Program-made: the position numbers and the translations under genes
NCBI GenBank assembly: GCA_034190725.1
Contig: JAXHSZ010000434.1
Coordinates: 1 to 39,893, forward strand
Direction of reading: 5' to 3'
DNA: 39,893 nt
Source: Thermodesulfobacteriota bacterium
GTDB lineage: Bacteria; Desulfobacterota; UBA8473
Part shown: piece by piece, positions 1,974-32,279 of the stretch
How the letters are laid out: every line of letters begins with the position of its first letter
How positions within the stretch are numbered: the first letter of the stretch is position 1
The notes under the pieces: model-generated
Told to the model about the DNA's origin: nothing
The model's input: only the letters and a program-made list of their open reading frames with translations
The model's database searches: none

Positions 1974-2131
1974 GTGTTCATCCATAAATGGCTATTTTTC
2001 GCGATCTCTGCGTCAGACTCAGATGTAAGGGCACATAGCAACGTGCCCCTACATACCCAATGTATTCATGCGGTTAAAATCTTCTTCTTCCTTGACCGTA
2101 TAAAAAATATCTTAATTCTGGATGGACACTA
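1974..2131 (+). mobile_element. MITE-like intergenic repeat, copy A (~158 bp)
   Basis: Terminal inverted repeats GTGTTCATCCATAAATGGCTATTTT ... AAAATATCTTAATTCTGGATGGACAC. Internal blocks (CTCTGCGTCAGACTCAGAT, CCCAATGTATTCATGCGGTTAAAATCTTC) are shared with copies at 3816, 33442 and 37015. Confidence 0.8.
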
Positions 2132-2152
2132 ACTATGTGAAAGGAGCAAGAA

Positions 2153-2635: not shown

Positions 2636-2663
2636 ATCTAATCAACAAAGGGAGGATAACATT

Positions 2664-3236
2664 ATGGGATTAAAAGGAAGTCGGACTGAAAGAAATATTT
2701 TGACCGCTTTTTCAGGAGAATCTCAGGCCCGTAACAGGTATACATATTTCTCCAGTCAGGCCAAAAAGGAAGGGTTTCAACAGATGGCATACATTTTTGA
2801 AGAGACAGCCGACCAGGAGAAGGAACATGCAAAGAGACTCTTCAAACTTCTTCAAGGAGGAGAAGTTGAGATAAAAGCAGCTTTCCCGGCCGGTGTCATC
2901 GGTACAACTGCTCAAAACCTCAAGGAAGCGGCAGCGGGTGAAAACTATGAATGGACGGACATGTATCCTTCATTTGCAAAGGTTGCAAGAGAAGAAGGTT
3001 TTGAGGACATCGCCAAAATATTCGAGTCCATAGCAGTGGCTGAAAAGCAGCACGAAAGAAGATATCTTGGACTTCTTACAAATATTGAAAAAGGTACGGT
3101 TTTTAAGAAAGAAAAATCAGTGACCTGGCGATGCCGAAATTGCGGCTATCTTCATGAAGGAATCGAGGCGCCGGGAACATGCCCCGCATGTGACCATGCT
3201 CAGGCTCATTTCGAGCTTCTAGCAGAGAATTGGTAG
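2664..3236 (+). CDS. rbr: Rubrerythrin (classical: N-terminal di-iron four-helix bundle plus C-terminal rubredoxin-like domain)
   Basis: ATG at 2664 follows AGGGAGGA. N-terminus [53 protein letters not shown]-terminal [16 protein letters not shown]. The upstream extension of the ORF (2619) overlaps the previous gene and lacks an RBS. Confidence 0.95.
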
Positions 3237-3297
3237 TCAAATGGTCACATGACATCAAAGGTAACATTCCCTTTGAATGTGAGGAAAGGAGTTTGAA

Positions 3298-3813
3298 ATG
3301 AAAGAAAGGGTCGGAGCTGTAACAATGAGAGGGAATCCTCTTACTCTTATGGGAGAGGAGTTGAAGGTGGGCGACAAAGCGCCTGACTTTCAAGTGATTG
3401 ACAATGAAATGTCTCCGGTGAAGCTTTCGTCATTTATGGGAAAGGTGTGTATCATATCATCTGTGCCGTCTCTGGATACTCCCGTATGTGACATGGAGAC
3501 TCGACGCTTCAACGAAGAAGCCGGTCGATTAGCCTCGGATGTAGCCGTACTCACCATCAGCATGGATCTTCCTTTTGCACAGAAACGATGGTGTGGAGCA
3601 GCGGGTGTAGACAAAGTGAAAACCCTTTCCGACCACAAAGATGCCTCTTTCGGTATCTCATACGGTGTGCTCATAAAAGAACTGAGATTATTGGCAAGAG
3701 CTGTCTTTGTTATTGATCGGAATGGTGTCATCCGTTTTGTGAATTTGGTGAAAGAAATGACGGAGGAGCCGGATTATGATTCCATTCTTGCAGCAGTGAA
3801 AGAAATTGCTTAA
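3298..3813 (+). CDS. tpx: Thiol peroxidase (Tpx-type atypical 2-Cys peroxiredoxin)
   Basis: GNPLTLMGEELKVGDKAPDF, SVPSLDTPVCDMETRRFN (peroxidatic Cys), LPFAQKRWCGA (resolving Cys). RBS AGGAAAGGAG. Confidence 0.93.
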   Translation: MKERVGAVTMRGNPLTLMGEELKVGDKAPDFQVIDNEMSPVKLSSFMGKVCIISSVPSLDTPVCDMETRRFNEEAGRLASDVAVLTISMDLPFAQKRWCGAAGVDKVKTLSDHKDASFGISYGVLIKELRLLARAVFVIDRNGVIRFVNLVKEMTEEPDYDSILAAVKEIA

Positions 3814-3815
3814 AC

Positions 3816-3960
3816 AGTGTCTGAACAAAAACTTGATGGTTTTTTCAAGTTCAAGGAAGATAAAGATTTTAACCGCGGGAATACATTGAGTATTTGGAGG
3901 ACTAAAATCTGAATCCGACACAGAAATTGGGAAAAAATAGCAGTTTCCATTCGGGCACTA
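3816..3960 (-). mobile_element. MITE-like intergenic repeat, copy B (inverted orientation, ~145 bp)
   Basis: The reverse complement aligns with copies A/D/E (…CAGATTTTAGTCCTCCAAATACTCAATGTATTCCCGCGGTTAAAATCTTTATCTTCCTTGAAC…). It starts 2 nt after the tpx stop codon. The ends are AGTGTC... and ...GGGCACTA. Confidence 0.75.
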
Positions 3961-4028
3961 AATATATGAAACACTATGCCTGTTCTTCAAAGAATGGGCC
4001 AAATGAAATGGGAGGAAGTGAGGAGATT

Positions 4029-4481
4029 ATGAATGGAGATGGTCTGAAGGAAATTATTGATTTTGCAGTGAAAAAAGAACAAGAAGCAGCTGATTTTTAT
4101 AATGATCTCTCAGGTAAGGTTGAGTTGAAAGCACTGGCTGAAGAGTTACTCAAAATGGCCCGAGTGGAGGAGAGCCATAGGGATCGATTGAGAAATATGG
4201 ATGTCTCCGCTTATGTGGCAAGCCCAGTAAAACCTCCAATTGACCTTAAAATTGCCGATTATTTGATCGATAAAGAACCCACACCCGAGATGTCATGGCA
4301 AGATCTGGTGCACATAGCCATGAAACGGGAGCTGGCTTCTATGAGACTCTATACTGATCTGGCAAAAGGAACCTCTGATCCTCAAGCCAGACGACTCTTT
4401 GAGAATCTGGCAGTTGAAGAGGAGGCTCACAAACTCTATTTTGAAAAGATTTGGGATGAAGAGATCATGACGGACAATTAA
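4029..4481 (+). CDS. Ferritin-like di-iron protein (rubrerythrin superfamily)
   Basis: ATG at 4029 follows GGGAGGAAGTGAGGAG. AVKKEQEAADFY, ARVEESHRDRL, AMKRELASMRLY, AVEEEAHKLYF. The longer ORF from 3927 begins inside MITE copy B and is rejected. Confidence 0.8.
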   Translation: MNGDGLKEIIDFAVKKEQEAADFYNDLSGKVELKALAEELLKMARVEESHRDRLRNMDVSAYVASPVKPPIDLKIADYLIDKEPTPEMSWQDLVHIAMKRELASMRLYTDLAKGTSDPQARRLFENLAVEEEAHKLYFEKIWDEEIMTDN

Positions 4482-4508
4482 ATCCTGAATGGAAAAGACC
4501 TCTTTGCC

Positions 4509-4574
4509 TTTCAGATAAACCAAGTGTCAGGAGAGAAAAAAGGATCTGAAACCTGAACACTGACACTTGAAACA
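4509..4574. repeat. GTTTCAGGT-type heptamer-rich inverted-repeat element (family 2), locus a
   Basis: CAAGTGTCAG (4521-4530) and CTGACACTTG (4560-4569) form a perfect 10-bp inverted repeat. TTTCAGAT and ATCTGAAA form a second pair. Motifs CTGAAACCTGAACACTGACAC are shared with loci at 10397, 14172, 17172 and 21987. Confidence 0.7.
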
Positions 4575-4704
4575 GAAATTTAACTCCATATCAGGGGCGA
4601 TTTACATTTTCTAAGAAATTGTTCGTTGTGGTGTGCATCGTTAAAAGTATGCACTGAGAAATGAAGGATGCCTCATTTTCGATGTAAAAAAAGGAGGAAA
4701 TGTA

Positions 4705-5079
4705 ATGACAAAGAAATTGGAGATCTATAAATGTGAAGTGTGCGGGAATATGGTTGAAATGATCCACGATGGCAAGGGTGAACTTGTATGCTGTGGTCAA
4801 CCCATGAAGCTCTTTGTGGAGAACACAACAGATGCAGCCAAAGAGAAGCATGTGCCTGTGCTGGAGAAGGCCGATGACTCATGCAAGGTGAAGGTTGGAA
4901 GTGTTCCTCATCCTATGGAGGAAGCCCATTACATCGAATGGATTGAAGTGATCTCAGATGGAAAAGCGTATCGCCAGTTCCTCAAGCCGGGAGAGAAGCC
5001 TGAAGCTGTTTTTCCCATTAAAGCAGAGAAGATCACTTCCCGTGAATACTGTAATCTTCACGGTCTGTGGAAAGCATGA
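4705..5079 (+). CDS. dfx: Desulfoferrodoxin (2Fe superoxide reductase)
   Basis: N-terminal desulforedoxin-like CEVCGN..VCCGQPM. Centre II ligands [38 protein letters not shown]. Confidence 0.95.
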
Positions 5080-10526: not shown

Positions 10527-13500
10527 CTAAGGATTTGCCGATACTGATGATTGATGAAAAGGCAGGCCTGATTGATATAATTTCATTCTGTTTTTTATTT
10601 GCCTCGCCAACTTCAATCTCCCCAAAGATACTGCGGCCTGCAGGGCTTTCTCCGCCGTGCGGACAGCATTATCAAAGAGGCCGTCTTCTGCATAGGCTGC
10701 GGCTAAAGTATCCAGCATTACCGGCTGTCTATAGAAAGTCTCTCGACATGCCTGTTTTGCCAGTTTCACTGCTTCCCTGGCATCACGAAACTCCGAGTTA
10801 TTATGGGTCGCCAAAAGCCATGCAAGGTTGCTTAGGGCCTCCGGCCAGTATGGTCTCAAGCGTAGGGCTTTTTGATACTGACTGATCGCTTCTTTAACAC
10901 GTCCTGAAACAACCAGGGCAATTGCCATATTAAAGTATATTTCAGGATCATCCGGTTTCATTCGAAGGGCTTCTGAAAAATGGACAATCGCCTCTTGGAA
11001 CTTCCCTTGTCTGCCAAGCGCTACAGCCAGACTCTCATGAGCCATGCCATAATCCGGCTTTATTTGTAATGCTTCCCTATAATGATCAATGGCTTCCTCC
11101 AACCTTCCCACCTCTTTCAGTGCCATTCCTATATTGTGATGGGCTTCCGCAAAGTCGGGTTTTATTCTCAACGCTTCCGCATATTGCTCAATGGCTTGAT
11201 CCAAAAGACCATTTCCATAAGAAAGACTCCCCATCAGAGAGTACAAAAGGGCTCTGTCAGGAGTATTATCGAGTTTGTTCCTCAATGTCGTCATTTGAGC
11301 GGACATGCATATCTGCCTGAACTCAATATCGTTAAAGATTGACAGATCCAATAAATTATTGGCGCAATATGTCTTTACAAGTCTTGAAAAACGCTCTTTT
11401 TGAAACGGTGTTGCCCTCTGAAGATCAACCATGTCATTGAATGGTTGATACAGAGAGAAAGCAAGGTCTGCGAAATCGATCTGAGCATCCACATCCTCTA
11501 TGATCTCCCCGATTATGCTTCTCGTTTTTTCACTGAGCCATTTGCGGAACTGAATATTTCTTTCTATTGCAGGATCGTTCATATACATTTGCTTTGGTGC
11601 GGTAAATTCCAGGCGAGGCATGTTGTCCGAGTTGATCGGTCCGGGGCCGAATAATTTTTGGAGGTCTTCGCTGGCAATATGACCGTAAAGGGATTTGGGA
11701 TTCAACAGAGTAATATTTTTGGATTGTCGAATGAATGGCAGATTCTTTAATGCATTTTCAAGGTTGAGTTCCTTTTCACCTTTCAATCCGATCAGCAGCC
11801 AGTCCCCTCCACCTATATAAGGAGCGGTACGCACCAAGAGACTCTTGGGAAAGACATGGCAGAAAGTGCGTCCCACAAGGGCAAAGGTCTCCCAATCCAT
11901 CTGATATGAATGAATCCACTGGACAAATATTCCATTGTCATTGAGTCTATTTCGAACAAGGCAAAAGAACTCATGAGTGTATAGGTTTGCCAGACCTGCC
12001 ATCCATGGATTGGATGGCTCTGAGATGATCACATCATATCTTCGTTTGGTTAACTGAAGATGCGCTCTTCCGTCCTGAATGATGAGTTCCGTCCGGGGAT
12101 CTTTCAGTACATTGCTGTTCCAGGGATTAAAAAAAGCACTTGCTTGCGCCATCTGCCTATTAATATCAATGACATCCAACCTTTCAATAGGGTAATTGAG
12201 TACCTCACCGGCGGTTATGCCGCTGGCCAACCCCAATACCATGACCTCTTTTGTATTTCGATGAAAGAGCATCCCGAAATGGGCCGAGAGAGTTTGAGTT
12301 GACATGTCGGTCATGGATGAAGCATCGGGTTTCCCACTATTGTACAAGCTGTAGATGGTCTTCCCCAGAGGATCCGTATCCTTGAACACCGTTGTGAAAC
12401 CTCCAATGCCGTCCCCGTAGTATACAAGATCACCGTGCTCGGACTTATCGATAAAACTGGGCCCATTCCAGAGAGCCTTCCACCATGGGATATTCTTTAT
12501 GCTTGAATGGATCCCCATCTCTTGAAAACGATGATATCTCCCTATTGACAGACCGTAGCGATCCCAGTTTGGGAAATGAGAACAGAGAAAGAGTCCAATG
12601 ACGGCTGTTACACCCAGAGGGACCCATTTGGAGAAGACTTCACTTTTTCTCCAGAATACAAAGCTCCCAATTGTCAGAGAAGTGAAAAGTTGTAGGCCGG
12701 CAACTACACTCAAACCATGTTCTTTGCCTATGAAGGGTACGAGGATGAATCCTGCACAGAAAGAGCCCAGAACTGCACCTATTGTATTGACGGAATATGC
12801 AATACCTATTGACCTTCCCACTTTAAGAACAGAACTGGTATATATCTTCCCCACAAGGGGAAGAGTTGCTCCCAGGCAAAGTGTGGGGAGAAACATAAAA
12901 ATGAAGAGTACAGTCGCTTTCAAAAAGGTCATCAGTGCAAAGTCATCTTTGAATTGGTAGATCAATTTTGCAAAGAAGAATTGGGTGTTCCCCAGGGTTT
13001 GACTTACACCCAGTGCAAAGAGAGCAGCAGCAACCTGAGTGCATATAAGAAACCGTATTACATTTCCGAATCTGTCGGCAAGTCTGCCGAAAATCATACT
13101 TCCCAGGGCCAATCCCGCGATAAATGTGGCGAGAACGATTGTAAAAGAATATGTGGTCGGACCGATGATCAATCCCAGAAGCTTTGTCCATATAACCTCA
13201 TAGGACATGGCGCAAAAACCGGAGACTCCATATATCACAAGGGCTCCATAAACTGCTCCTGGATATTCTGAAGGAAGAGGAGTATCGTGGATATCTCTCT
13301 GTGAAGAGTCTTTTGAATCCCTGTCTTCCTTCCAAACGTTCTTTGAAAATATTTTTCCACCATGACTGAGAAAAAGACACGATGCACCGATAATTACATT
13401 GAGGAGTACGGTTGATATCAGAGTAATCCATATGCCCCATATGTTTATGAGAAGAAAGCCGCATAAGAGGGAACCAAGTGCGGCTCCAATGGTATTGAGC

Positions 13501-14060
13501 CCATATAGTCGTCCAACATGGGTGCCCAGATGAGAGAGATGACTCACATAGAAACGACTCAGGATTGGGAGTGTGGCTCCCATACATGCAACAGGGGGGA
13601 TCAAGAGGATTGTGCATCCGATAAAAGTGAGGGAATTATACAGTATGAGATGATCGAAGAGTTGATTATACAAGGCTGCAAAAAAAGGCCTGGATGCAAC
13701 GAGAAGCAAGGGAAGGAGGAGACCGTATCCACCTATGGCAATTTCCAGTATTCCGTATAGCTTAATCAATCTTCGTGGATTTTTAATGCGGTCTATTGTT
13801 CTTCCGGCTAAATAACTTCCCAGCCCCAATCCGCCCATAAAGACCGTCAATACCGCACTGACTGCAAACGGGGCATTGCCGATGACCATTGAAATCATTT
13901 TGGTCCAAAGTATCTCGTAAATCAACCCGGTGAGACCTGAGAGGAAGAAACAGGTAAGGATAAAGGCGGTTATCCATGGGGCAGGATACTTGAAGCCTCC
14001 ATTCTTCTCTCTTGTTCGTTCTTTATCATCCAGGTTTGTTTTGTCTTTGTGTCTCACCAT
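10527..14060 (-). CDS. Fused polytopic membrane domain / spermidine-synthase-like methyltransferase-fold domain / C-terminal TPR repeats (1177 aa)
   Basis: N-terminal ~480 aa of repeated hydrophobic helices (GLIYEILWTKM occurs in two related forms). Central SpeE-like region (VMVLGLASGITAGE, DVIISEPSNPWMAG). C-terminal TPR units (AIEQYAEALRIKPDFAEAHHNIG, AIDHYREALQIKPDYGMAH, and others). Confidence 0.85.
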   Translation of the reverse strand: MVRHKDKTNLDDKERTREKNGGFKYPAPWITAFILTCFFLSGLTGLIYEILWTKMISMVIGNAPFAVSAVLTVFMGGLGLGSYLAGRTIDRIKNPRRLIKLYGILEIAIGGYGLLLPLLLVASRPFFAALYNQLFDHLILYNSLTFIGCTILLIPPVACMGATLPILSRFYVSHLSHLGTHVGRLYGLNTIGAALGSLLCGFLLINIWGIWITLISTVLLNVIIGASCLFLSHGGKIFSKNVWKEDRDSKDSSQRDIHDTPLPSEYPGAVYGALVIYGVSGFCAMSYEVIWTKLLGLIIGPTTYSFTIVLATFIAGLALGSMIFGRLADRFGNVIRFLICTQVAAALFALGVSQTLGNTQFFFAKLIYQFKDDFALMTFLKATVLFIFMFLPTLCLGATLPLVGKIYTSSVLKVGRSIGIAYSVNTIGAVLGSFCAGFILVPFIGKEHGLSVVAGLQLFTSLTIGSFVFWRKSEVFSKWVPLGVTAVIGLFLCSHFPNWDRYGLSIGRYHRFQEMGIHSSIKNIPWWKALWNGPSFIDKSEHGDLVYYGDGIGGFTTVFKDTDPLGKTIYSLYNSGKPDASSMTDMSTQTLSAHFGMLFHRNTKEVMVLGLASGITAGEVLNYPIERLDVIDINRQMAQASAFFNPWNSNVLKDPRTELIIQDGRAHLQLTKRRYDVIISEPSNPWMAGLANLYTHEFFCLVRNRLNDNGIFVQWIHSYQMDWETFALVGRTFCHVFPKSLLVRTAPYIGGGDWLLIGLKGEKELNLENALKNLPFIRQSKNITLLNPKSLYGHIASEDLQKLFGPGPINSDNMPRLEFTAPKQMYMNDPAIERNIQFRKWLSEKTRSIIGEIIEDVDAQIDFADLAFSLYQPFNDMVDLQRATPFQKERFSRLVKTYCANNLLDLSIFNDIEFRQICMSAQMTTLRNKLDNTPDRALLYSLMGSLSYGNGLLDQAIEQYAEALRIKPDFAEAHHNIGMALKEVGRLEEAIDHYREALQIKPDYGMAHESLAVALGRQGKFQEAIVHFSEALRMKPDDPEIYFNMAIALVVSGRVKEAISQYQKALRLRPYWPEALSNLAWLLATHNNSEFRDAREAVKLAKQACRETFYRQPVMLDTLAAAYAEDGLFDNAVRTAEKALQAAVSLGRLKLARQIKNRMKLYQSGLPFHQSSVSANP

Positions 14061-14886: not shown

Positions 14887-16587
14887 TTAGAATGCATACT
14901 TCATAGCCAAAGCGGCTATCCATGCATTATCAGGGTCATGATCATCCGCTAATTTCCAGTAGTCTCCAGCAACAAGGTAATCAAACTCTGCCGTGAGTGT
15001 CAAGGTCTTTGTCATGGCGTACCGGAGTTCCAAGTCAAGCTCATGGCCTATGTCAGTGTCGCGAACATATCTGACACCACCGCCAAGAGTAACTCGGAAA
15101 TTTTCTACATCTTTTTCTAATGTTTGTAAATACCAATATTCAGCATACAATGAAAGCTTCTTGTCGAACGGAACAGTTATCGCAAGATTGGCCATAAATC
15201 TTCCCAGACTGTCTAAACCGGATGCAGTTGGAAAATCAGCATATTCCTCAGTTGTGTTTCCACTCCCTCCCCACCATAGGAGGTTGGGTCCGTCTGTACT
15301 CAAGTTTATGAGAGGCAATCTGGATGGCGGCTCAATAAAAGCAAAACATTCCAGCTTATCATCTGTGGGGTCATCGTCGGCGGAACCATACAGAAGACCG
15401 GCCTTGAGCGTGTAGCTGTTAATGGGCATTGTTGCCTTCCATCTGGCAAAATAGCCGCCGGCATCAATGTCCGGATAACTGTCATTCTGTGAATCCCATT
15501 CACCAAAAGAATATATGGCGTGAAGATTGTTCTTTACTGGTCCTATTTTAAAATCCGTAAATCCACCAAGATAGTATGTGTCAATATTCCATGGTTTGGC
15601 CTGAAGGTTGCCAACCGTTCCCGCGAGAACCGCATCAGGTGAAGCAAAATACAGCATATCCCAGGTTCCCCCTAAGCCGGAACGGGACGTCCATTTCTCT
15701 CTATGATCCATATTATATCCGACATAACCTCCAAAACCTAGTGATTCTTTTTTCTGGCTGTATTCCACATAGAAGAGATTGTGGTCACTGTCACCCTCGC
15801 CCCACACATCAGATGTATGTATATCTCCTTCAACCATCTTTGCCCAAAATGCCTTGATCTTTTGATTTTTGCCGAATTTATAATTGGCCTCTACTCCGGG
15901 CGCCGGGCCTGCAGCGGTCATGAAGACCTGATCATAGCCATATATGGGCTGTTTCCCTACTTTAAAAGACAAGCTGGTATCAGGTACGGTGAAGTCTACA
16001 AAAGCCCACCTTACAGCAACGTTTGTAATAGCATCATCCGCTACCATTCCATTATCTCCAGCCGTGTTGAAGATGGCCTGTACAGCGCTAAAATCAGTGC
16101 CGTCAGTGCCGTATATTCCCATACCGCTGTCACTGTAATCCTTGCCCCACTCATCCCAGCCTACTTCCACCTGAAAGAATCCTTTAACGTTTGTCGACGC
16201 AGCGATACTTAAAAGACGAAACCGCTGGTCCACATAATTAGACTCGTCTTTGGTTCCCACATTAGGATAGAGAGAGTCACTCGCTGCATTAAGAAAATAC
16301 TCTCTCAAAGTTAAACCAGGAGCACCGAGTGAGGCGGCATCGGCATCGGGATCATAGTCAAGTCCCAGTGCAGCCAATTGAACAGTTCCTATTGTGTCTG
16401 CAAGCCAATAATTTATCTCCGGAAAATAACTGTCTCCCCCATCCCACATGTCATGAACATTATCAGATGCTATTGCCTGGACTTCATATTCTCCCTTAAA
16501 GAGCATCATTGCGGCAGAGGCTGTTTGAGGCGCTGTCAAAAACCCAACAAGCGTCAATGCCAAAGCCAGTATCAAGAATTTTTTCAT
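14887..16587 (-). CDS. Predicted beta-barrel outer-membrane protein / porin-like (566 aa)
   Basis: ATG at 16587 follows GGAGG by 9 nt. Signal peptide MKKFLILALALTLVGFLTAPQTASA. Alternating amphipathic strands rich in Y/G/D. C-terminal ...LAMKYAF with terminal Phe, typical of BAM substrates. Family not identified. Confidence 0.8.
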   Translation of the reverse strand: MKKFLILALALTLVGFLTAPQTASAAMMLFKGEYEVQAIASDNVHDMWDGGDSYFPEINYWLADTIGTVQLAALGLDYDPDADAASLGAPGLTLREYFLNAASDSLYPNVGTKDESNYVDQRFRLLSIAASTNVKGFFQVEVGWDEWGKDYSDSGMGIYGTDGTDFSAVQAIFNTAGDNGMVADDAITNVAVRWAFVDFTVPDTSLSFKVGKQPIYGYDQVFMTAAGPAPGVEANYKFGKNQKIKAFWAKMVEGDIHTSDVWGEGDSDHNLFYVEYSQKKESLGFGGYVGYNMDHREKWTSRSGLGGTWDMLYFASPDAVLAGTVGNLQAKPWNIDTYYLGGFTDFKIGPVKNNLHAIYSFGEWDSQNDSYPDIDAGGYFARWKATMPINSYTLKAGLLYGSADDDPTDDKLECFAFIEPPSRLPLINLSTDGPNLLWWGGSGNTTEEYADFPTASGLDSLGRFMANLAITVPFDKKLSLYAEYWYLQTLEKDVENFRVTLGGGVRYVRDTDIGHELDLELRYAMTKTLTLTAEFDYLVAGDYWKLADDHDPDNAWIAALAMKYAF

Positions 16588-17171
16588 TACGTTCACCTCC
16601 AAATTGATAATAGGTTCTTACTCCTTACATCTTCAATTTTTTTACCCCTTGCCAAATCTCTCCCTTTTCTTTGCATCCCCCCTTTCAGTGTTTAGAATTA
16701 CTTCAAAAACTCAGAACTGCTTCTTCAGGGGTGTTGGCCAAAGCCGTTTTTGCTAATGCATCACCCCCTTTTACTATGAATTCGCTAATATCGAGGATAT
16801 CCTGTTCTTGTTCTTTTCTTGAGCCTAAAATACCATTCTCAATAACACCTTTAATATAGCCTTGTCAAGAATTTTTTTTTAAAAATAAGCGTCAGGCCTA
16901 TGTTTATACCCCATAGACAATCAACATTCTACATCCATTATCACCAATTATTGTGGATTGTACGATCCTCGATACAACATATGGAGGTTAAAAAATTTTT
17001 AGACTGCTGTTTTTTATGAGTTATTTTATAGGGTTATGACTCTCTGCATAATAAATCTAAACTACCATTGTTTCTGATCCATACTTTATGATAAGGACAG
17101 ATATTGTAGGCGCTTTTCTTATCACTGATGCTCTTTGTGGTAAAAATGCACCATCACGAATACTCTCATCT

Positions 17172-17408: not shown

Positions 17409-17957
17409 CTATGAATGAACACCATCAAGAAACCACTGAAAGAGATCAAAACATGTGGGACAGAAGTCCGGTTCTTTCAAATCTGTGTTCTCAATTTTTG
17501 TGGATGAAAACATCACACATCTCTTGTCCCTGCAATGTGTCAAACCGAAAGTGTGGCCGAGTTCATGTATGGCGGTCTTTTCAACTCGTTCCAGGAGAAT
17601 GTCGGTATTGGGTGGCTGGTCGTAAAACTCCGGATGAAGCCGATGTGTTGAGATGAGAAAACACTTTCCCTCAACCTGTGCCACTCCGAAGACATACTTC
17701 AAAATGGGCACATAAATATCAACATGTGTAACACCCATAAACCGTAATGTATCTTCAGGACAAGACCGAGAGAGATGACTCAAGATCAGCTTTGAATTGT
17801 ACTGGCCCCGGGCTTCATTATAGGCATATTGGGGATTCTCCATCATCCGAGAAATCCTGGAAGCAAGACCGCACCGTGTAAAGATCCGTTCGGCAATGTG
17901 CATAAGGATTGTCTTGTCTTCGGAGCCGATAGGGCATATGATGATCTCTCTTGACAA
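17409..17957 (-). CDS. amzA: Archaemetzincin-type zinc metallopeptidase (peptidase M54)
   Basis: HELGHTFGLTHC zinc motif followed by CVMF...CPTC (Cys4 structural site). TTG start 12 nt after the stop of the upstream regulator gene (likely coupled). Confidence 0.85.
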   Translation of the reverse strand: MSREIIICPIGSEDKTILMHIAERIFTRCGLASRISRMMENPQYAYNEARGQYNSKLILSHLSRSCPEDTLRFMGVTHVDIYVPILKYVFGVAQVEGKCFLISTHRLHPEFYDQPPNTDILLERVEKTAIHELGHTFGLTHCRDKRCVMFSSTKIENTDLKEPDFCPTCFDLFQWFLDGVHS

Positions 17958-17969
17958 AGCGGCTTGCAG

Positions 17970-19322
17970 CTACCTCCTTCTTTTCATCTCATATTTTGCT
18001 ATCTTGTTGTAGAGGGTCTGTCTGTCAATCTCAAGTACACTTGCTGCTTGACTGATATTCCAATTGGTTTCATTCAATATTCTCTCAATATGTATCTTCT
18101 CCATCATCTTCAACGACTTGGGAAAAGTATCTGCCCCAACTTCTATACGTGAAAAAGGCAGATCATCCGGTACAATTTCATTGCCTTGACCGATCACCAA
18201 AGCCCTTTCGATGATATTCTCAAGTTCCCTTACATTCCCTGGCCAGTTATAATCCATGAGCAATTTAAGTGCTGAGGAGGAGATTTTCACAGGTTCCCTG
18301 TTCATTTCAAGACAATACCTTTTGATAAAGGCGTTCACTAATAGAGGGACATCCTCTTTTCGTTCTCTGAGTGGGGGTAAATGAATTGAGATGACGTTCA
18401 GACGGTAATAAAGGTCCTCACGAAATTTCTTCTCTTCCATTGCCTTTTTCAAATCACGATTTGTTGCAGCCAGTATCCGGACGTCAACTTTTATTACGTC
18501 TTGACCTCCAAGACGTCTGAATTCCTTTTCCTGGAGAACCCGCAAGAGATCAACCTGCGTCTTTAAGCTGATATCTCCAATTTCATCAAGAAAAAGCGTG
18601 CCTTCATGGGCCATCTCGAATCTTCCCTTTTTGGTATGCTCCGCCCCGGTAAAGGCGCCCTTTTCATATCCGAACAGTTCACTCTCCAAAAGAGAATCTG
18701 GCAATGCACCGCAACTGACCGCTACAAAAGGCATGTAGCATCTCTGACTATTTCCATGAACGGCTTGAGCCACAAGCTCTTTCCCCGTGCCGCTTTCACC
18801 TGTAATGAGGACGGTAGAATCCGTTGGCGCAACGCGGGAAATCAACTGAAAAACATCTTGCATTGCATCACTTTTTCCAATAATTTCATCATATCCTTCC
18901 CGTTCTTCCAATTTTCTGCGAAGCAGTATATTCTCCAGAACCAGCTCCTTATGTGAGACAATCTTCTTAATATGCATCTCTACTTCATCCGGATCAAAGG
19001 GCTTCACAAGATAATCAAAGGCACCTTCTTTCATGGCCTGGACTGCTGTATCTATTGTGGCATACGCGGTCATGATCAGTATCTCAGCATCTGGGTTTAC
19101 ATCCTTTTGTTTGAGTTTTGTAAGGGTTTCAAGGCCGTCTATTCCAGGCATCTTGAGGTCCAGTAAGACAATATCCCAGTTCTTCTCTTTTGCCATGTCA
19201 ACGGCTTCTTCTCCACTTGCCGCCAAGCCAACATCATAGCCATCTTCCATCAGCCAGTCCCTGAGACTCTCTCGCATGGCCACCTCATCATCAACAACGA
19301 GAATACGAGGTTTTTTCGTCAT
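17970..19322 (-). CDS. Sigma54-dependent response regulator (REC + AAA+ activator + Fis-type HTH; NtrC family)
   Basis: ILVVDDE...DLKMPG receiver domain. Walker A GESGTGKE. GAFTGA loop (EKGAFTGAE). C-terminal HTH NISQAASVLEIDRQTLYNKI. Confidence 0.95.
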   Translation of the reverse strand: MTKKPRILVVDDEVAMRESLRDWLMEDGYDVGLAASGEEAVDMAKEKNWDIVLLDLKMPGIDGLETLTKLKQKDVNPDAEILIMTAYATIDTAVQAMKEGAFDYLVKPFDPDEVEMHIKKIVSHKELVLENILLRRKLEEREGYDEIIGKSDAMQDVFQLISRVAPTDSTVLITGESGTGKELVAQAVHGNSQRCYMPFVAVSCGALPDSLLESELFGYEKGAFTGAEHTKKGRFEMAHEGTLFLDEIGDISLKTQVDLLRVLQEKEFRRLGGQDVIKVDVRILAATNRDLKKAMEEKKFREDLYYRLNVISIHLPPLRERKEDVPLLVNAFIKRYCLEMNREPVKISSSALKLLMDYNWPGNVRELENIIERALVIGQGNEIVPDDLPFSRIEVGADTFPKSLKMMEKIHIERILNETNWNISQAASVLEIDRQTLYNKIAKYEMKRRR

Positions 19323-19419
19323 AACACGCCCCCCCGTGTTTCAAAATATTAAAATTTGACCGATGTTGAAGCTACTCTTTAAAATAATTAGACTGTTACA
19401 CAGTCAAAACTCGTTTACT

Positions 19420-21630
19420 CTATTGAGCGGTTGGAAGTTGAATCCTGAAGATGCTCCCTTTCCCCTCCTGACTTTCCACCTCTATGGAGCCGTTGTGCCG
19501 TGTGATGATTCCATAGACTACCGAGAGACCCAGACCGACCCCTTTAGCTTCTTCTTTTGTGGTAAAGAACGGCTCAAAGATATTCTTCATATCTTCCTCA
19601 GGGATGCCACAACCCGTATCCGAGACTTCTACTTCTAAAAAATCCTTCTTTTGGGACAGCCGGGCTTTTATCGTCAGTATCCCACCTTTTGTCATTGCCT
19701 CTGAACCATTGATTACGAGGTTGAGTAAAGCCTGCTGAATCTGCTTGAAATCACATCGTACCTTTGGTAAGTCTGATTCAATCTCTTTTTCCAATTGTAT
19801 TCCTTTGATTTCCAGATCATGAGCAATGAGGATCAGCGTCCTATCAATGATCTCTTCAATATTGTTGTCCTCAATTGTTATCTTGGACTGACGGGAAAAT
19901 GCCAGAAGATTCTTTACAATGTCTCCGCATCTGGCAGTCTCCGATTCCATAGTGGCCAGGTATCTGGATATATCTTCAATTCTTTTCGGTATGAAGTTAC
20001 CGCGACGCAACATCTTTCGCATTAACCTGATATAGGTCAAAACAGCAGCGAGAGGATTGTTTATTTCATGGGCAATGGTGGCTGCCAATTTGCCCAGTGA
20101 TGCCAATTTCTCCGTATGTATGACCTGTTCGTGAGCTTCACTGAGTTCCTGATAAGCACTCTTAATACTCTCATAAAGGTTTGCATTGTCTATGGCAACC
20201 CCAATCTGATTTCCAATAGCCGTCAAGAACTCCACATAGTCCGATGAGAATCTAAATTCCGAATGGCTGGATACGCACATTACACCTACAGATTTTTCTT
20301 TGGACATAAGCGGTATATAGACCGTGGATTGAAGGCCCTCTTCGATAATTGAGTCTACATAGGGATCTTCCGATCGCAGAAAGTTGTCCACAATACGGGT
20401 TTCACCCGTAAAAACAGTCTGCCCCAAAAGCCCGTCTCCCACCCTCCGCGATTGAAAGAAGCTCTTCGAAATAAATTTATGAGAAAGGCCCTTATGAGCC
20501 ATGAGGTAGAGGTTTTCCCTCTCTCTGTCAAGCATATAAATCCTGACACTATCAGGCTCCAAGATATCGACTATTCTATCAATAGTGTGGTCAATGACCT
20601 CATTGAGATACAGACTGCTGCTTACGGCCATGGCTACGGTATTGAGAGTGGTTAACCTGGCATTCTGTGCCTCAATCTGTTCCTGGGCCTTTGTGAGTTC
20701 CTTATACGCCCCCTTGACATTTTCATACAGATTTGCATTGTCAATTGCCACCCCTATCTCATTGCCGATAGCTGTCAAGAATTCCACATAATCGGCTGAG
20801 AATGTGAACTCAGAATGGCTGGACACGCACATGGCTCCCACCGGCTTTTCCTTTGACACAAGAGGGATATAAACAGTAGACTGAAGGCCTTCTTCGATAA
20901 TTGAGTCCACATAGGGATCCTCTGAGCGTAAAAAGTTGACCACAACCCTCGTGTCGGCTGTGAGGACTGTTTGCCCTAAAAGCCCGTCCCCTATTTTTCG
21001 GCATTTGATAAAGCTCTTATTGACAAATCTATCTGATAACCCCTTATGAGCTACAAGATTGAGACATTCTCTTCCCTTATCGTATAAATAGATCCTGACA
21101 CTATCTGATTCGAGAATCTCAAGCATCTTATCGATCGTATGTGCAAGTACCTTATTTAAGTCCAGACTCCTATTTAGTGCCTTGGATACAGCGTTCAGGA
21201 TGGTAAGTCTCGCGTTCTGTCTCTCAATCTGCTCCTGAACTTTCTTTATGTGGGATATGTCTCTGATGATAACTACATAGCCACTCGCCTCATTGTTAAC
21301 GTCAAGAATCACGCTGGAAGTAATCAAAGCATTAAAAACCCGGCCTTGTTTTGTCACAAGTCGGGTCTCATACTCTGAAACAGAGCCCTCTTTCAGAACA
21401 TTCTTCCGTAATTGGTACAAATCTTCTCGCTTTTCAAAAACATCGACAAACGATACTGGGGATAAGATTTCATCTTTTGTTTCATACCCCAGGATTGTAA
21501 TCCCGGGTCTGTTGATATCCACTATCTTGCCTTCGGGGTCCGCAAGAATTATGGCATCACGAGACCATTCAAATATCGTTCGATACTTTTCTTCAGATTC
21601 ATATAAACCTTTTAATGGCTCTGGTATCAT
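19420..21630 (-). CDS. Soluble sensor histidine kinase, PAS-GAF-GAF-HisKA-HATPase
   Basis: N-terminal PAS ([22 protein letters not shown]). Two near-identical GAF modules. H-box [14 protein letters not shown] boxes [25 protein letters not shown]. No TM segment. Confidence 0.92.
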
Positions 21631-22129: not shown

Positions 22130-23380
22130 TCAGTCCAATATAATGGCATTGGCCAGAAGTGTCCATAGATGAACGGGTTCGAATTGATAATCGTCTTTGT
22201 ATTCCCTTGCCAGATTACCGATACCGTCAAAACAATTCACACATGGGGTACAGACAAAATTCGCTTTTGACCTTTTGATCTGATCCACCTTCACTTTTCC
22301 ATAATAGCTTCTGGCTCTTGCAAATCCGCTTATGAGAGCACCACCGCCTCCACTGCAGCAGAAGTTATTCTCCCGGTTCGGTGTCGACTCCACGAAGTTG
22401 TTCACCACATGACTCAAAACAAATCTGGCATCGTCAGCTATGGAAGGAAAGTCATCTATCTTGGCTTTACGCACAGCATTGCACGGATCATGCAATGTGA
22501 CCACTTTGTCATCATTTCTCGACGGATCCAATTTGAAACGTCCTTCTCTGATCCATTCCGCGTACAAAGTAACAACACTCTTCACATCAAACTTATGCTC
22601 AATATTGAATTTTTTGAAACCCACCTGGGTTGCCCAAAGACCGTGGCCTCACTCCGTATACGCCATGGTTTTGCAACCCAACTCGTGAACCCGGTCAACC
22701 TGTTTTCTCAGAGTAGTTTCCCAAGTATCAAAATCACCGGTAAACATGGCGTAGTTGGTGCCTTCCCACCATTGGGAAGATATGGTCCAATCCACACCTG
22801 CTGCATGAAAAATCTTGTAGATAGGCTGGAGATCACCTGGATAATACTGAGGCAGTTTTGAGTTTATTGTACAGAAATATTCTGCCCCTTCTTTATCAAT
22901 GGGTACTTCAAATCCAGGAATCTCATCGTCCTCAAGTTCTTCTGCCATCCACTCAAATGTCTCAATCCCATCCTCTATGGTCAGTCTCATGTTATTGCCC
23001 ATTTCAAGATGATTGTCCGCTGTCTTTTGAATCTCTCCGGGACATTCCTCCCTCGGACGAGCAGCTCGGGCTTGTGTAATTATCTGACCCAAATTGATGC
23101 CCATAGGACATGACCATGTACAGCGTTGGCAATTGGTACACTGCCACGGCCAATTTGAATCGATCACATCTTGCTCCAAACCTAATTCAATCATACGAAT
23201 CAACTTCCTCGGATCCATGCCTTCCCAGTCTGATACCGGACAACCACCAGCACAGGTTCCGCATGTAAGACATAAATCCAATTTGCTGAGAGGTGAGACC
23301 AACTCCTTGAATTGAAGGTCTCCTCTGTCTTTTTTTAGTCTGATTTTCTCCACTATCCACCTCCTGAGGCCTTTGGCCAC
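22130..23380 (-). CDS. HdrD/GlpC-like Fe-S oxidoreductase (2x[4Fe-4S] ferredoxin domain + CCG domains), predicted selenoprotein with in-frame UGA at 22651..22649
   Basis: ORFs 22649..23380 and 22130..22624 are in the same frame, separated only by one TGA (…MAYTE-TGA-GHGLWATQVGFKKF…). The N-terminal part carries CLTCGTCAGGCP and CTNCQRCTWSCP. The C-terminal part carries DPC...CCSGGGG...CTPCVNC (CCG domain) but has no ATG or RBS of its own. A SECIS-like hairpin follows the TGA. Confidence 0.7.
22613..22638 (-). promoter_or_regulatory. SECIS-like hairpin downstream of the in-frame UGA
   Basis: mRNA reads UGA-GGCCACGGUC-UUUGG-GC-AACCC-AGGU-GGGUU-UCAAA. The lower stem is UUUGG/UCAAA (with one G.U pair), there is a 2-nt bulge, the upper stem is AACCC/GGGUU, and the apical loop AGGU contains GGU. 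The stem begins 10 nt after the UGA, similar to the spacing known for E. coli fdhF. Confidence 0.5.
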
Positions 23381-23774
23381 AACGGTATGTTTCCTTCTTT
23401 GAAGGATTGCTATCCCTGATCAAAAAAATTTATGAAAAGTGAAGCAGTTCTTTTATAATTAATTGTTATAAAATAGCAAGCTGTCAGCAAGCTTCAACGG
23501 CAGTCGAATTTTAATAAATGTATTGTCTGAGCATTTGAGTAAGCGTTAAGAGAATACGAGTTTTACACGAATTTAAATTTGACTCTTTTTAAAAAAGCTA
23601 AACTGACATAAGATAAGACAGATATCGGCAAATGTCAAGTTTGCTCTCTCCTGTCATATTATAATATTCTTCCTGATAATATAAGTCCTTTTCGACGGTT
23701 ACGATGAAGCCACATCCAGCTTTGTTATGTGAGTGACTCGTCAAAAAGGACCCATATATCACACAAAGAACCGA

Positions 23775-24668
23775 CTATAACTCAAGCCAGGAATCGGAAT
23801 ACAGTGAATGTCCCAAAAGAACCTTAGCTGTCTTCATATAGTCCAGCTCCTCTTTTGTCATGGAGCCGGGATCGGGTTCATTGCCGTCGCAAATATCTTC
23901 GATCAGCTTCTTGATCTCAGGCCTTTCACCTTTACAAAAAGCAGTCATATCATCATCAAAGGCGTCGACTATGGCCGAGTACATGCCGTACTTTTCTATG
24001 ATAACTATATACGTTTGATTGAGTATAGGTCTCAAATGTTCGGGGGCCCCGTTTGAGACATTTGATAACCCGCAGGTGGATTTCATCCCAGGTGCCAGGG
24101 CGTCACACAAATCAGGAAACATCATCATAAACGTGGTCATGCTCTTCACCTGGTCCTGCTGAACGTTGACCGGTGTCATGATGGGATCCAGGAAGATATC
24201 CTCCGGCGCCATTCCCGCTTCAAGCATTGCGGAAACCAGAGTCACGGTCAATTCCGATCTCTCGTTTTCATCCCTGGGCATACCAGAGGGTCCCCAGAGT
24301 AAAGCGATTGCCTGGGCGTTGTACTGAGCTGCTAATGGGATCATGGCCTCCATTCTTTCAGGCCTTGCCATGATCGAGTTGATCATGGCTCTCCCCTTGT
24401 GCACCTTTAACCCTGCCTCTATGGCCTCTATGTTTGAGGTGTCCAGGGCCAGGGGGATATCCGGCACCACCTCCTGAACTGTCTTGACGATCCATTCCAT
24501 CAATTCGGGGCCACCCTTTCTTGCCGGACCAAGATTGATATCGATCCAGTCCACACCCTTTTCCGCTTCTTCCTCGGCCAGCTTTCTGATGGGACCCGGG
24601 TCCTTCTCTTTCATTGCTGCGCCGATGGTTTTCACCATGACGTTTAAATTTTCTCCTATTCGTAACAT
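23775..24668 (-). CDS. acsE: Methyltetrahydrofolate:corrinoid/iron-sulfur protein Co-methyltransferase
   Basis: Pterin-binding (DHPS-like) barrel: IGENLNV, DWIDINLGP, LALDTSN, INSI, CGLSNVSNG. Position next to acsC/acsB. Confidence 0.9.
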   Translation of the reverse strand: MLRIGENLNVMVKTIGAAMKEKDPGPIRKLAEEEAEKGVDWIDINLGPARKGGPELMEWIVKTVQEVVPDIPLALDTSNIEAIEAGLKVHKGRAMINSIMARPERMEAMIPLAAQYNAQAIALLWGPSGMPRDENERSELTVTLVSAMLEAGMAPEDIFLDPIMTPVNVQQDQVKSMTTFMMMFPDLCDALAPGMKSTCGLSNVSNGAPEHLRPILNQTYIVIIEKYGMYSAIVDAFDDDMTAFCKGERPEIKKLIEDICDGNEPDPGSMTKEELDYMKTAKVLLGHSLYSDSWLEL

Positions 24669-30698: not shown

Positions 30699-32279
30699 TT
30701 ATGACCTCTTGTGAATTCTATCCAAAAAGGCGATAATCTTTTCCGTGTTTGATAGTTGAACGTCGGCAGGAGTAGCCGGTATAGCTTCACCAGTCTTTGC
30801 TTCCTTTTGACGTTTTGCTTCAAGTGCTTCACGCTCTTTTTGTCTTTTCAACCTCATTTCATCAAGGTCTGCTTCGGCTTTTGCTTTGGCTTTCTCTTTT
30901 GCCTCAGCCTCGGCTTTCTTTTTTGCTTCCTCCTCGGCTTTGGCCTTTGCTTCCGCATCTGCTTTCGCCTTTGCCTCTGTTTCCGCCTTTGCCTTGGCAT
31001 CCTCTTCTGCTTTCTTCTTTGCTTCCTCCTCGGCTTTAGCTTTTGCTTCTGCATCGGCTTTTACCTTGGCCTCTGAATCCACTTTTACCTTTGCTTCTGC
31101 ATCCGCCTTGGCTTTAGCATCTTCAACCGCTTGAGGCTTTTCTGCAACCTTCTTCTCTTCCTTTACCTCAGGTTTTGGCGCTGCCTTGGGAGGGGCTTTC
31201 GGCGCTGCTTTCTTCTTTTCCTCTTTGGGCTCTTCCTTTACCTCTATTTTCTCGATCTTCGGAAAATCGCCTTCCGGCTTAGCGTTAATCCCCTGCAATT
31301 TAGCCGCGAGTTGCTCGGGGCTGATGGCAAGATCGCCGGTAATCATCAAACAAATAAACTCCTTCACCAACTTGACACTCTCTGGATGCCTTAAGACAAG
31401 GATATCCGAACCGGCCAGAAGATAGGTAACGGCTCCGACACATTCCAGCATGATCCCTCTGTTCTCAGGGTCGCCCAGAGTGGGAGCTTCCTCCAAACTC
31501 TGCTTGGCCTCTTTACACTTCCATATCTCCTCACCGAGACTGTTGATTATTGGACTCTGAAGTTTTTCATCTTCCTGAGTCAATGCGGCCATCCTGATTC
31601 TTTCCATTACTGAATAGGAATATTCCAGGCCATATCCCAATCCTCCCGTGGTGGGATCGATCAGGATCTTATCAGAACTCACTCCAAGATTATCGAGAAG
31701 TACATTGAGTTGTTTGGCAAGATTGATGTCTATGGGGGTTGACGCGATCACCGATTGTTTGAATCCCAAAGCACTGGCACCGATTTGTTTGTGAGTAGCT
31801 TCTTCAACCGGGCCTAAAACAAGGTTCTTTCCCTGGTTATCTTCCGCTATCTTCTTCAGGACTTCAACGTCTTTATCTTTATCCCCGCATCCCCACACTG
31901 CAACCGGGACGTCCACAGCATCGCGCACTTTTTTCACCGTGGCGGCTGCCTCCTCCGGACCCTTGTTCGGACCGTTGGGATCAGTGCTTTTCAATTGTAC
32001 CACAATCATGTCAGCACCGTATTCTTCTACACACTTCTTTGCCCAGGCCCCGGAATCGTTCAATACATCCTTAAATGGCGTAATAACAGCCTCAGGCCAT
32101 TCTTCAGGTGCCATGTCCCATATTTCCATGGCAACCTTCGGTGTATTAGGCATTTCACCCTCAAACAGGTAAAAAGGATAGGATGACTCTCCACCTACAG
32201 TGAGAGTCTTTCCCCCTTCACCCAGGGTCACCTCTTTTATCATTCCTGTGTAATGTGTTTTTGTAATTTCAAAGGCCAT
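30699..32279 (-). CDS. acsD: Corrinoid iron-sulfur protein small subunit (delta) with ~185-aa Lys/Glu/Ala-rich C-terminal extension
   Basis: Residues 1-~330 look like the AcsD TIM-barrel (EVTLGEGGKTLTVGGE, MIVVQLKSTDP, IDPTTGGLGYGLEYSYSVMERIR). Residues ~341-526 are low-complexity (PKEEKKKAAPKAPPKAAPKPE, then repeated AEAKAKAEEEAKKKAE units), ending in NTEKIIAFLDRIHKRS. Confidence 0.88.
   Translation of the reverse strand: MAFEITKTHYTGMIKEVTLGEGGKTLTVGGESSYPFYLFEGEMPNTPKVAMEIWDMAPEEWPEAVITPFKDVLNDSGAWAKKCVEEYGADMIVVQLKSTDPNGPNKGPEEAAATVKKVRDAVDVPVAVWGCGDKDKDVEVLKKIAEDNQGKNLVLGPVEEATHKQIGASALGFKQSVIASTPIDINLAKQLNVLLDNLGVSSDKILIDPTTGGLGYGLEYSYSVMERIRMAALTQEDEKLQSPIINSLGEEIWKCKEAKQSLEEAPTLGDPENRGIMLECVGAVTYLLAGSDILVLRHPESVKLVKEFICLMITGDLAISPEQLAAKLQGINAKPEGDFPKIEKIEVKEEPKEEKKKAAPKAPPKAAPKPEVKEEKKVAEKPQAVEDAKAKADAEAKVKVDSEAKVKADAEAKAKAEEEAKKKAEEDAKAKAETEAKAKADAEAKAKAEEEAKKKAEAEAKEKAKAKAEADLDEMRLKRQKEREALEAKRQKEAKTGEAIPATPADVQLSNTEKIIAFLDRIHKRS

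Follow-up and report, generated by a model that had tools for sequence, protein, structure and literature searches.

An HdrD-like gene with a probable selenocysteine codon at the end of a CODH/ACS cluster in a Thermodesulfobacteriota metagenome-assembled genome

An HdrD-like Gene with a Single In-Frame TGA

We examined a stretch of 39,893 nucleotides, here called the window, which corresponds to positions 1 to 39,893 of contig JAXHSZ010000434.1 in the Thermodesulfobacteriota assembly GCA_034190725.1. Its minus strand carries the series cooC, folD, acsD, cooS, acsB, acsC, acsE and an HdrD-like gene, after which come genes for a histidine kinase of the PAS-GAF type, a response regulator of the sigma-54 type and a peptidase of family M54. 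The subject of this study is the HdrD-like gene, which an earlier inspection of the nucleotide letters, here called the sequence-only reading, had placed at the end of the acs cluster and interpreted as a probable selenoprotein gene. The gene does come after acsE, in agreement with the proposed placement.

Translation of the minus strand from 23380 to 22130 yielded a single frame that was open but for a lone internal TGA at 22651..22649. The mechanically listed open reading frames (ORFs) in this frame were of 243 amino acids (22649..23380) and 164 amino acids (22130..22624), as had been described in the sequence-only reading. The translation around the TGA reads …ELGCKTMAYTE*GHGLWATQVGFKKF…, with …HELGCKTMAYTE-TGA- on the upstream side, and the junction of the joined product reads TMAYTE-U-GHGLWATQVGFK, where U is selenocysteine (Sec). 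The downstream part was previously noted to lack an ATG, and we confirmed that its translation is without any Met codon; moreover, no start codon after the TGA was conserved among the 13 orthologs described below.

The true start of the gene is likely to be the GTG at 23353, since it is preceded six bases upstream by AGGAGG (23365..23360), the orthologs start at the equivalent position with VEKIRL or MEKIRL, and a 234-amino acid product recorded at NCBI begins there. This record, MDY7033352.1, is derived from a Thermodesulfobacteriota metagenome-assembled genome (MAG), is named "4Fe-4S dicluster domain-containing protein" and is the exact product from GTG 23353 to the internal TGA. That gene callers would split the gene was thus correctly anticipated: the NCBI record stops at the TGA, and the downstream genes of the relatives were called separately. 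From GTG 23353 to 22130 on the minus strand, the coding sequence comprises 407 codons plus a terminal TGA stop, and the full product would contain 407 amino acids with Sec at residue 235. The idea of a single polypeptide was upheld, while the length of about 415 or 416 amino acids was revised to 407.

The features of the gene are as follows:

22130..23353, minus strand: candidate selenoprotein coding sequence; frame open save for one TGA, start as in the relatives, Fer4 and CCG domains
22649..22651, minus strand: in-frame UGA, putative Sec residue 235 in the motif T-E-U-G-H; aligned with an invariant Cys, TGA kept in the orthologs
22618..22631, minus strand: core of a hairpin resembling a selenocysteine insertion sequence (SECIS); conserved stem and (A)GGU loop in the TGA forms
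23351..23365, minus strand: ribosome-binding site AGGAGG and probable GTG start (23353..23351); read from the sequence, the starts of the orthologs and the recorded product
23105..23272, minus strand: HdrC-like region of ferredoxin type, in which the motif CxxCxxCxxxCP occurs twice (C28..P39 and C72..P83); Pfam Fer4_8/Fer4_17 and alignment to HdrC
22232..22483, minus strand: complete C-terminal CCG motif, predicted noncubane [4Fe-4S] site; Pfam CCG and alignments to HdrB and EtfD

A scan of all six frames revealed no other credible gene with an in-frame TGA in the window. TGA served as the terminator of 8 of the 27 other genes in the window and also ends the HdrD-like gene itself, and a reassignment of UGA according to genetic codes 4 or 25 was ruled out on these grounds.

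The TGA Aligns with an Invariant Cysteine

The 120 best database matches to the protein fell into 2 groups. The full-length homologs, 106 in total, all contained the sequence E-C-G-H at the site of the UGA, with no residue other than Cys at the UGA position. The remaining 14 matches were the closest relatives, which shared 72% to 86% of their residues with the query over its N-terminal 56%, and all of them ended at …MAYTE. The database clusters to which these 14 belong contain more than 100 member sequences. These short proteins are gene-caller artefacts, because the DNA of the relatives (L001, L002 and eleven further TGA-type loci) stays in frame past the TGA. In an alignment of 36 sequences with 40% to 75% identity, the residues E234, C235, G236 and H237 were invariant.

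Orthologs were collected by scans of species-representative genomes and metagenomes, supplemented with 2 contig look-ups. The TGA form was represented by 13 distinct sequences, comprising the window and the loci L001 to L008 and L051 to L056, which were obtained from Thermodesulfobacteriota/Desulfarculaceae MAGs and from metagenomes; as these sequences are related, the counts overstate the number of independent events. About 40 distinct Cys-type orthologs with TGC or TGT at the same position were identified in Myxococcota, Planctomycetota and other bacteria. The frame was open to the normal C-terminus in all TGA forms. In the window, the 172 codons downstream of the TGA were open, and the protein identity of this downstream part to the L002 ortholog ranged from 72% to 88% among the window and the remaining TGA-type loci.

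The pairwise differences in codons +1 to +13 after the TGA amounted to 0.09 at the first, 0.13 at the second and 0.38 at the third codon position. Such a pattern, dominated by third positions, is a coding signature and indicates that the stretch after the TGA is translated. Three of the checks that had been proposed for the selenoprotein claim came out in its favour: a conserved Cys aligns with the UGA, the homologs neither truly stop at this site nor form 2 genes, and independently assembled genomes and metagenomes yielded the TGA in 13 distinct sequences, which speaks against an error. Taken together, the alignment with Cys, the conservation of the TGA, the coding constraint after it and the conserved hairpin described below argue that the UGA at 22651..22649 is almost certainly decoded as Sec.

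A Hairpin Shared by the TGA Forms

The hairpin downstream of the UGA consists of a 5′ arm AACCC (22631..22627), a loop AGGU (22626..22623) and a 3′ arm GGGUU (22622..22618). The sequence-only reading had proposed a SECIS-like hairpin with this loop, and the hairpin was present and conserved in the TGA forms; its core starts 22 nucleotides past the UGA. We evaluated the loop, stem, G-position, spacing and energy with our own re-implementation of the published bacterial SECIS model (PMC13188914) rather than with bSECISearch. All 13 TGA forms contained a stem (N)ACCC/GGGU(N) of at least 5 base pairs with a loop starting with (A)GG, located 22 to 23 nucleotides from the UGA, in accordance with the geometric criteria of the model. 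A folding energy within the limit of the model was additionally reached by 8 of the 13 TGA forms, as compared to 6 of the 42 Cys forms at the equivalent place, and 22 of the 42 Cys forms were without any candidate hairpin there. The hairpin common to the TGA forms is lacking from the roughly 40 Cys-type orthologs.

The TGA forms were divided into 2 subclades that differed in the fifth pair of the stem, which was A-U in the window subclade (G-U in L051) and U-A in the other (L008 has a G/A mismatch there). Both subclades have kept the 3′ arm GGGU, although its register against the codons is shifted by one nucleotide, GTG-GGT-T in one and GTY-GGG-TA in the other. Codon-anchored RNAalifold did not recover the hairpin, because its 3′ arm is offset by one nucleotide from one subclade to the other. 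When sequences were folded one by one and compared with shuffled controls, neither the window nor the orthologs gave a significant result. The residues encoded by the hairpin were T-Q-V-G in the Sec forms versus T-L-A-G in the Cys forms. In a 12-codon segment starting from the UGA, the identity of synonymous codons in the Sec forms ranked as number 3 of 387 (z = 2.1), whereas in the Cys forms it was below average (z = -0.5).

A neighbour-joining tree inferred without bootstrap grouped one Cys form, L075, within the Sec clade. It contains ACC-AAA-GCG-GGA at the corresponding site and has no hairpin, and it looks like a reversion from Sec to Cys. This TGC ortholog in an otherwise all-TGA clade is located at L075:7893-9107. 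The start of its database protein, P0001 (368 amino acids), was mis-called, as the open frame reaches about 35 codons beyond it on the upstream side and takes in the first Fe-S motif. Our assessment of the hairpin builds on the comparison of the orthologs and not on folding energy; the candidate SECIS appears to be well supported by the comparison, while its stability in the window is marginal.

If decoding proceeds as in the bacterial systems already known, SelB carrying Sec-tRNA(Sec) would read the UGA, guided by the hairpin 22 nucleotides downstream. No second selenoprotein gene was found in the window, but a second candidate was identified in related contigs. The mvhD (FlpD) genes at L002:14464-14928 and L075:13806-14261 contained an in-frame TGA (…FVAG-TGA-LEGECH…) and had been split by gene callers. 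The TGA in these genes aligned to a Cys in the homologs from L008, L047 and L048 (…VSG-C-HPGDCH…), and was followed by a hairpin of 7 base pairs in L002 or 6 base pairs in L075, with a GGA loop and the same spacing of 22 to 23 nucleotides as in the HdrD-like gene. The Sec-type mvhD genes on the L002 and L075 contigs provide indirect support for the presence of a Sec-decoding machinery.

Domain Architecture and Family Assignment

Pfam searches assigned a Fer4 dicluster to the part before the Sec site and a CCG domain to the part after it, in agreement with the sequence-only reading. The ferredoxin motifs read CLTCGTCAGGCP and CTNCQRCTWSCP, and these 2 CxxCxxCxxxCP motifs are expected to bind 2 cubane [4Fe-4S] clusters. 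The CCG motif has the form C291-X40-C332C333-X37-C371-X2-C374 and is the predicted site of a noncubane [4Fe-4S] cluster. In comparisons with PDB profiles, the N-terminal part aligned to the HdrC chains 8rvu_c and 5odc_C, and the CCG motif aligned residue by residue with the C-terminal, second CCG domain of HdrB (5odc_B), as well as with C637...C712 of EtfD.

The best NCBIfam models were those for HmcF (3e-70), TmcB (3e-54) and DsrK (2e-41), with bit scores of 237, 184 and 142 versus equivalog cut-offs of 750, 735 and 400, respectively. These cut-offs and the gene context ruled out that the protein is DsrK, HmcF or TmcB proper, and judging from the model scores it belongs to a paralogous soluble subfamily. 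GlpC proper was also rejected: the model TIGR03379 scored 30.7 bits against a cut-off of 279.9, matched only the ferredoxin part, and there is no glpAB nearby. Of the previous designation as HdrD/GlpC-like, the first half was borne out, whereas GlpC is a legacy COG label and the nearest models are HmcF, TmcB and DsrK.

To represent the fold we used, as a proxy for the window protein, the AlphaFold model of a Cys-containing homolog (P0004) that is 59% identical to it. This model had a mean predicted local distance difference test (pLDDT) value of 92.3. The best structural match in Foldseek was EtfD (9OJN), with a template modelling (TM) score of 0.71 and an E-value of 8e-13, and full-length HdrB chains were matched with target-normalised TM scores of 0.62 to 0.68 over 279 to 292 aligned columns. 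The proxy model thus predicts an HdrB-like fold with 2 CCG-type domains. The window protein is most simply described as a putative fusion protein of HdrD-like type, made up of one module like HdrC and one like HdrB, and its length and domain content suggest that it is soluble. No partner gene for a membrane cytochrome b or quinone-interacting protein of the DsrM, HmcE, TmcC or HdrE types was found in the window.

Position and Proposed Role of the Selenocysteine

Profile alignments placed the Sec at C581 of EtfD and the His at position +2 at H583 of EtfD (T-C581-P-H583-C584 versus T-E-U-G-H-G), while the C291 of the DPC sequence was placed at C637. In the EtfD structure, the first CCG domain holds its cluster through C581 and C584, and H583 is a ligand of the noncubane [4Fe-4S] cluster in the second domain (PMC13083937). 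The DsrK, HmcF and TmcB proteins contain one complete CCG motif and have kept one strictly conserved Cys from the missing motif, situated in the sequence T/GECGH, and this Cys has been proposed to be essential for the reduction of a disulfide or trisulfide (PMC10861901). In the P0004 model, the strand 232-235, Cys238 and the helix 239-251 mirror the strand 368-371, Cys373, which is the first of the CxxC, and the helix 374-386. The assignment of the Sec to the first Cys of the CxxC builds on the longer alignment to EtfD, on this repeat of secondary structure and on the published alignment statement (PMC10861901). The N-terminal pseudo-CCG region alone gave no significant match to the PDB profiles (EtfD, E = 0.64).

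These comparisons suggest that the first CCG-like domain is degenerate and would have lost its cluster ligands save for a single invariant Cys in T-E-C-G-H, replaced by Sec in this clade. The Sec would then be the sole surviving ligand position of the degenerate domain, situated beside the noncubane cluster. Its selenol would act as a redox-active nucleophile that attacks or resolves a substrate of the disulfide or persulfide type, and the noncubane cluster would deliver electrons singly during the Sec-based cleavage. We infer the insertion of Sec, its catalytic role and the partners and substrate of the enzyme; such a role has been proposed for the equivalent Cys of DsrK, HmcF and TmcB. Sec is usually only encountered at redox-active, catalytic Cys positions, and its occurrence in T/GECGH would provide independent evolutionary support for the proposal of a catalytic Cys. 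The study of DsrMKJOP in which this proposal was made is silent on selenocysteine (PMC10861901).

Genomic Context and Physiological Role

The order acsB-acsC-acsE-(DRTGG), the Sec-type HdrD-like gene, kinase and regulator was also observed in L003, L004, L006, L007 and L055. In the window, the genes for the PAS-GAF-GAF histidine kinase, the sigma-54-dependent regulator and the archaemetzincin-like M54 peptidase are located at 17409-21630 on the minus strand, and their order is conserved in several MAGs (L003, L004, L006, L007 and L055). The gap ahead of the HdrD-like gene, which in relatives contains the DRTGG-domain gene, has none in the window. A terminator-like hairpin was observed at the end of acsE (23790..23771, minus strand) along with a match to a sigma-70-like promoter (23638..23610, minus strand) inside this 421-nucleotide gap, which hints that the HdrD-like gene is a separate transcription unit. 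Matches to a sigma-54 promoter upstream of the HdrD-like gene were no more common than expected by chance.

Other gene neighbours were found in some of the relatives. A large hdrA-like gene, mvhD, metV (DUF5981), metF and cooC come after the gene in L002, and they do so in the Cys form L075 as well, while in L008 an hdrA-like gene and mvhD are located upstream of it. The operon feature of hdrA together with mvhD/frhD was thus present in L002, L008 and L075 and partly in L006, and was absent from the window. At least 11 Cys-type orthologous loci displayed the order hdrA-like, hdrD-like, metV, (mvhD), metF. Since the window gene follows acsE in the cluster for carbon monoxide dehydrogenase/acetyl-CoA synthase (CODH/ACS) and the orthologs sit with hdrA, mvhD and metV-metF, a role in the Wood-Ljungdahl pathway is suggested. 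The repeated linkage with acs, hdrA, mvhD and metVF points to electron transfer to or from methylene-tetrahydrofolate (methylene-THF), and the protein is most likely a fused subunit of the HdrC+B type in an Hdr-type methylene-THF reductase or electron-transfer module.

More speculatively, this clade may offer a natural exchange of Cys for Sec in the T/GECGH of single-CCG HdrD/DsrK-type enzymes, and the Sec enzyme may be a dedicated, conserved part of a Wood-Ljungdahl module in Desulfarculaceae-like bacteria, a scenario that we consider possible although less likely than not. If true, the protein would be the equivalent of HdrC+B in the methylene-THF reductase, or serve in a different thiol/disulfide step linked with CODH/ACS; the lineage would require selenium to fix carbon or to oxidise acetyl-CoA; and the selenol would attack a co-substrate of the disulfide or persulfide type on the Hdr side of such complexes.

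Alternative Explanations for the In-Frame TGA

The TGA could alternatively be a true stop, such that a 234-amino acid HdrC-like ferredoxin is followed by a separate HdrB-like CCG protein of about 150 to 165 amino acids that starts from an internal GTG or TTG. Consistent with a division into 2 genes, NCBI holds only the 234-amino acid product, the callers at JGI/ENA yield downstream genes of 147 to 151 amino acids in L001 and L002, and HdrC and HdrB are separate proteins in the solved complexes and in the methanogens. However, the encoded protein sequence is conserved over the 22 codons that separate the TGA from the downstream starts chosen by the callers, with codon-position differences of 0.09, 0.13 and 0.38, and the stretch is collinear with uninterrupted Cys-type homologs. 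Moreover, the start codon is not conserved across the 13 orthologs, there is no ATG in the downstream part, and a split would remove the invariant Cys of ECGH and part it from the invariant G-H. We therefore regard 2 separate genes as very unlikely. Even less credible is that a nonsense mutation or a base-call error has converted a TGC or TGT into TGA in this MAG. It is true that the window is a metagenome-assembled contig and that TGA is one base away from TGC and TGT, but separate projects, among them NCBI MAGs and metagenomes of ENA and JGI, have yielded 13 distinct sequences with this TGA, and downstream of it 172 codons are open and conserved as protein with all catalytic Cys motifs intact. 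A pseudogene or a sequencing error is effectively refuted by these comparative data.

Another alternative is that the UGA is read through independently of Sec, by a near-cognate tRNA for Trp or Cys or by SelB with Cys, with a mixture of truncated ferredoxin and full-length protein as the outcome and termination as a possible means of regulation. Bacterial translation normally terminates to some extent at Sec-UGA codons. The weak hairpin in the window and the lack of Sec machinery in the window and the related loci examined are compatible with such read-through. On the other hand, the UGA is situated exactly at the invariant redox Cys and the documented Sec members share the motif UGH, the hairpin with SECIS geometry strictly accompanies the TGA and has disappeared from L075, the Cys form nested among the Sec forms, and a Trp at the invariant Cys would be non-functional. 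In addition, L002 contains both the TGA form and a Sec-type mvhD, a classical selenoprotein gene, and a Sec-type mvhD is also found in L075. Hence, Sec-independent read-through has in our view a very small probability, comparable to that of 2 separate genes. In summary of the alternatives, the DNA and protein comparisons make a sequencing error, a pseudogene, a split into 2 genes and a reassigned code unlikely, and the best explanation of the whole is, with high probability, a single gene for a 407-residue soluble, Sec-containing thiol/disulfide oxidoreductase of the HdrD/DsrK type.

A number of observations weigh against this interpretation or against parts of it. The hairpin in the window was no more stable than shuffled sequences (z = -0.5 to -0.9), and its energy was -5.7 kcal/mol alone and -7.7 kcal/mol for a 32-nucleotide stretch; in our implementation, the hairpin alone falls short of the limit of -7.5 kcal/mol. 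The minimum free energy fold (-12.8 kcal/mol) was an alternative structure with a CAA loop in which the UGA itself is paired. No match to the Rfam SECIS models was obtained at the gathering threshold in the whole window, and permissive E-values in the segment 22560..22700 yielded chance matches only. The covariation in the stem amounts to about one compensatory event between the 2 subclades. No genes for selA, selB, selD or tRNA-Sec were identified in the 39.9-kb window or in the related loci examined, and the tRNA scans of 14 related loci were empty. The internal-repeat alignment with hhalign that places the Sec at the CxxC position was weak (E-value of about 0.05, probability of about 1%). 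As for the physiological role, hdrA, mvhD and metVF are not adjacent to the gene and none of them is present in the window, where the kinase and the sigma-54 regulator follow instead.

Relationship to Known Systems

The "Fe-S oxidoreductase (GlpC)" was one of 25 bacterial selenoprotein families tabulated in 2006, with operons of the type glpC-hdrA-frhD (PMC1794560), and a review from 2026 lists the family, with the Sec motif "UGH", among the high-confidence predictions (PMC13188914). In Desulfobacterium autotrophicum, the soluble HdrD4 contains Sec (PMC2702500). The literature thus agrees with the previous suggestion that Sec forms of such proteins are known from the deltaproteobacteria (PMC1794560, PMC13188914, PMC2702500). 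Like the window gene, the members of the Sec-containing GlpC/HdrD-like family combine a ferredoxin dicluster with a CCG domain, have a single Sec in U-G-H and have Cys homologs. The published members, such as WP_174406253.1 and HdrD4, were likened to the window protein by description, from the shared superfamily and Sec position. The relatives of the window gene are likewise located beside hdrA and mvhD/frhD, as in the glpC-hdrA-frhD operons (PMC1794560). In the published family, however, the gene is followed by hdrA-frhD-frhG-frhA, whereas the window gene closes the CODH/ACS cluster and is followed by the kinase and the sigma-54 regulator. A further difference is that the window gene is not annotated as a selenoprotein gene in GenBank.

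The DsrK, HmcF and TmcB proteins resemble the window protein in having 2 cubane motifs, a single complete CCG motif and T/GECGH. They differ in that they are catalytic subunits of membrane complexes of sulfate reducers and contain a Cys in the motif, whereas the window protein has a putative Sec, a context of the Wood-Ljungdahl pathway and not of sulfite reduction, and no cytochrome b gene nearby. In the HdrBC structure (5ODC), HdrC matches the N-terminal part and the second CCG domain of HdrB matches the C-terminal CCG. HdrB and the HdrD of Methanosarcina contain 2 complete CCG motifs, with 2 noncubane clusters that cleave CoM-S-S-CoB between them, whereas the first CCG domain of the window protein keeps a single Cys/Sec, for which a mechanism with one cluster plus a selenol would be expected. 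EtfD (9OJN) is the only solved structure with a sequence alignment across the Sec site. Unlike the window protein, EtfD is a membrane protein in which a linear [3Fe-4S] cluster bound by C503, C538, C581 and C584 serves as a non-catalytic electron wire, and three of these four ligands are missing from the window protein.

The HdrCBA-MvhD-MetVF complexes of Moorella thermoacetica and Sporomusa ovata likewise function in the Wood-Ljungdahl pathway, and the gene order of the orthologs resembles that of these complexes (PMC9430772). The acceptor on the Hdr side of the M. thermoacetica complex has been described as unknown (PMC9430772). The complexes of the acetogens contain separate HdrC and HdrB proteins of the Cys type, to which HdrD is the fusion equivalent.

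The window gene is, to judge from its sequence, a new and mis-annotated member of an already described selenoprotein family, and it does not change in kind what is known about Sec decoding or Hdr-like enzymes. In the public records of this MAG, and of a dozen or more related assemblies, the gene appears as a 234-amino acid "ferredoxin", with the catalytic half either ignored or split off. As a consequence of the short annotation, reconstructions of the Wood-Ljungdahl pathway in uncultured Thermodesulfobacteriota would miss both an Hdr-type enzyme and a selenium requirement.

Other Features of the Window

The acsD ORF in the window encodes 526 amino acids, as compared to 323 amino acids in L002. 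Its C-terminal segment of about 190 residues (30699-31300, minus strand) is a low-complexity repeat rich in Lys, Ala and Glu (…AKAKADAEAKAKAEEEAKKKAE…) with no match in Pfam. On the plus strand, positions 1-5079 contain an oxygen-defence cluster that consists of a gene for a flavodiiron-like protein (ODP plus flavodoxin), which is cut by the end of the contig, four rubrerythrin-family genes, and genes for a peroxiredoxin and a desulfoferrodoxin. The peroxiredoxin is of the Cys form and its gene has no in-frame TGA. An ORF of 571 amino acids at 14887-16602 on the minus strand had no match in Pfam, and adjoins a gene for a protein of 1177 amino acids (10527-14060) in which a region similar to the major facilitator superfamily is combined with a spermidine-synthase domain and tetratricopeptide (TPR) repeats.

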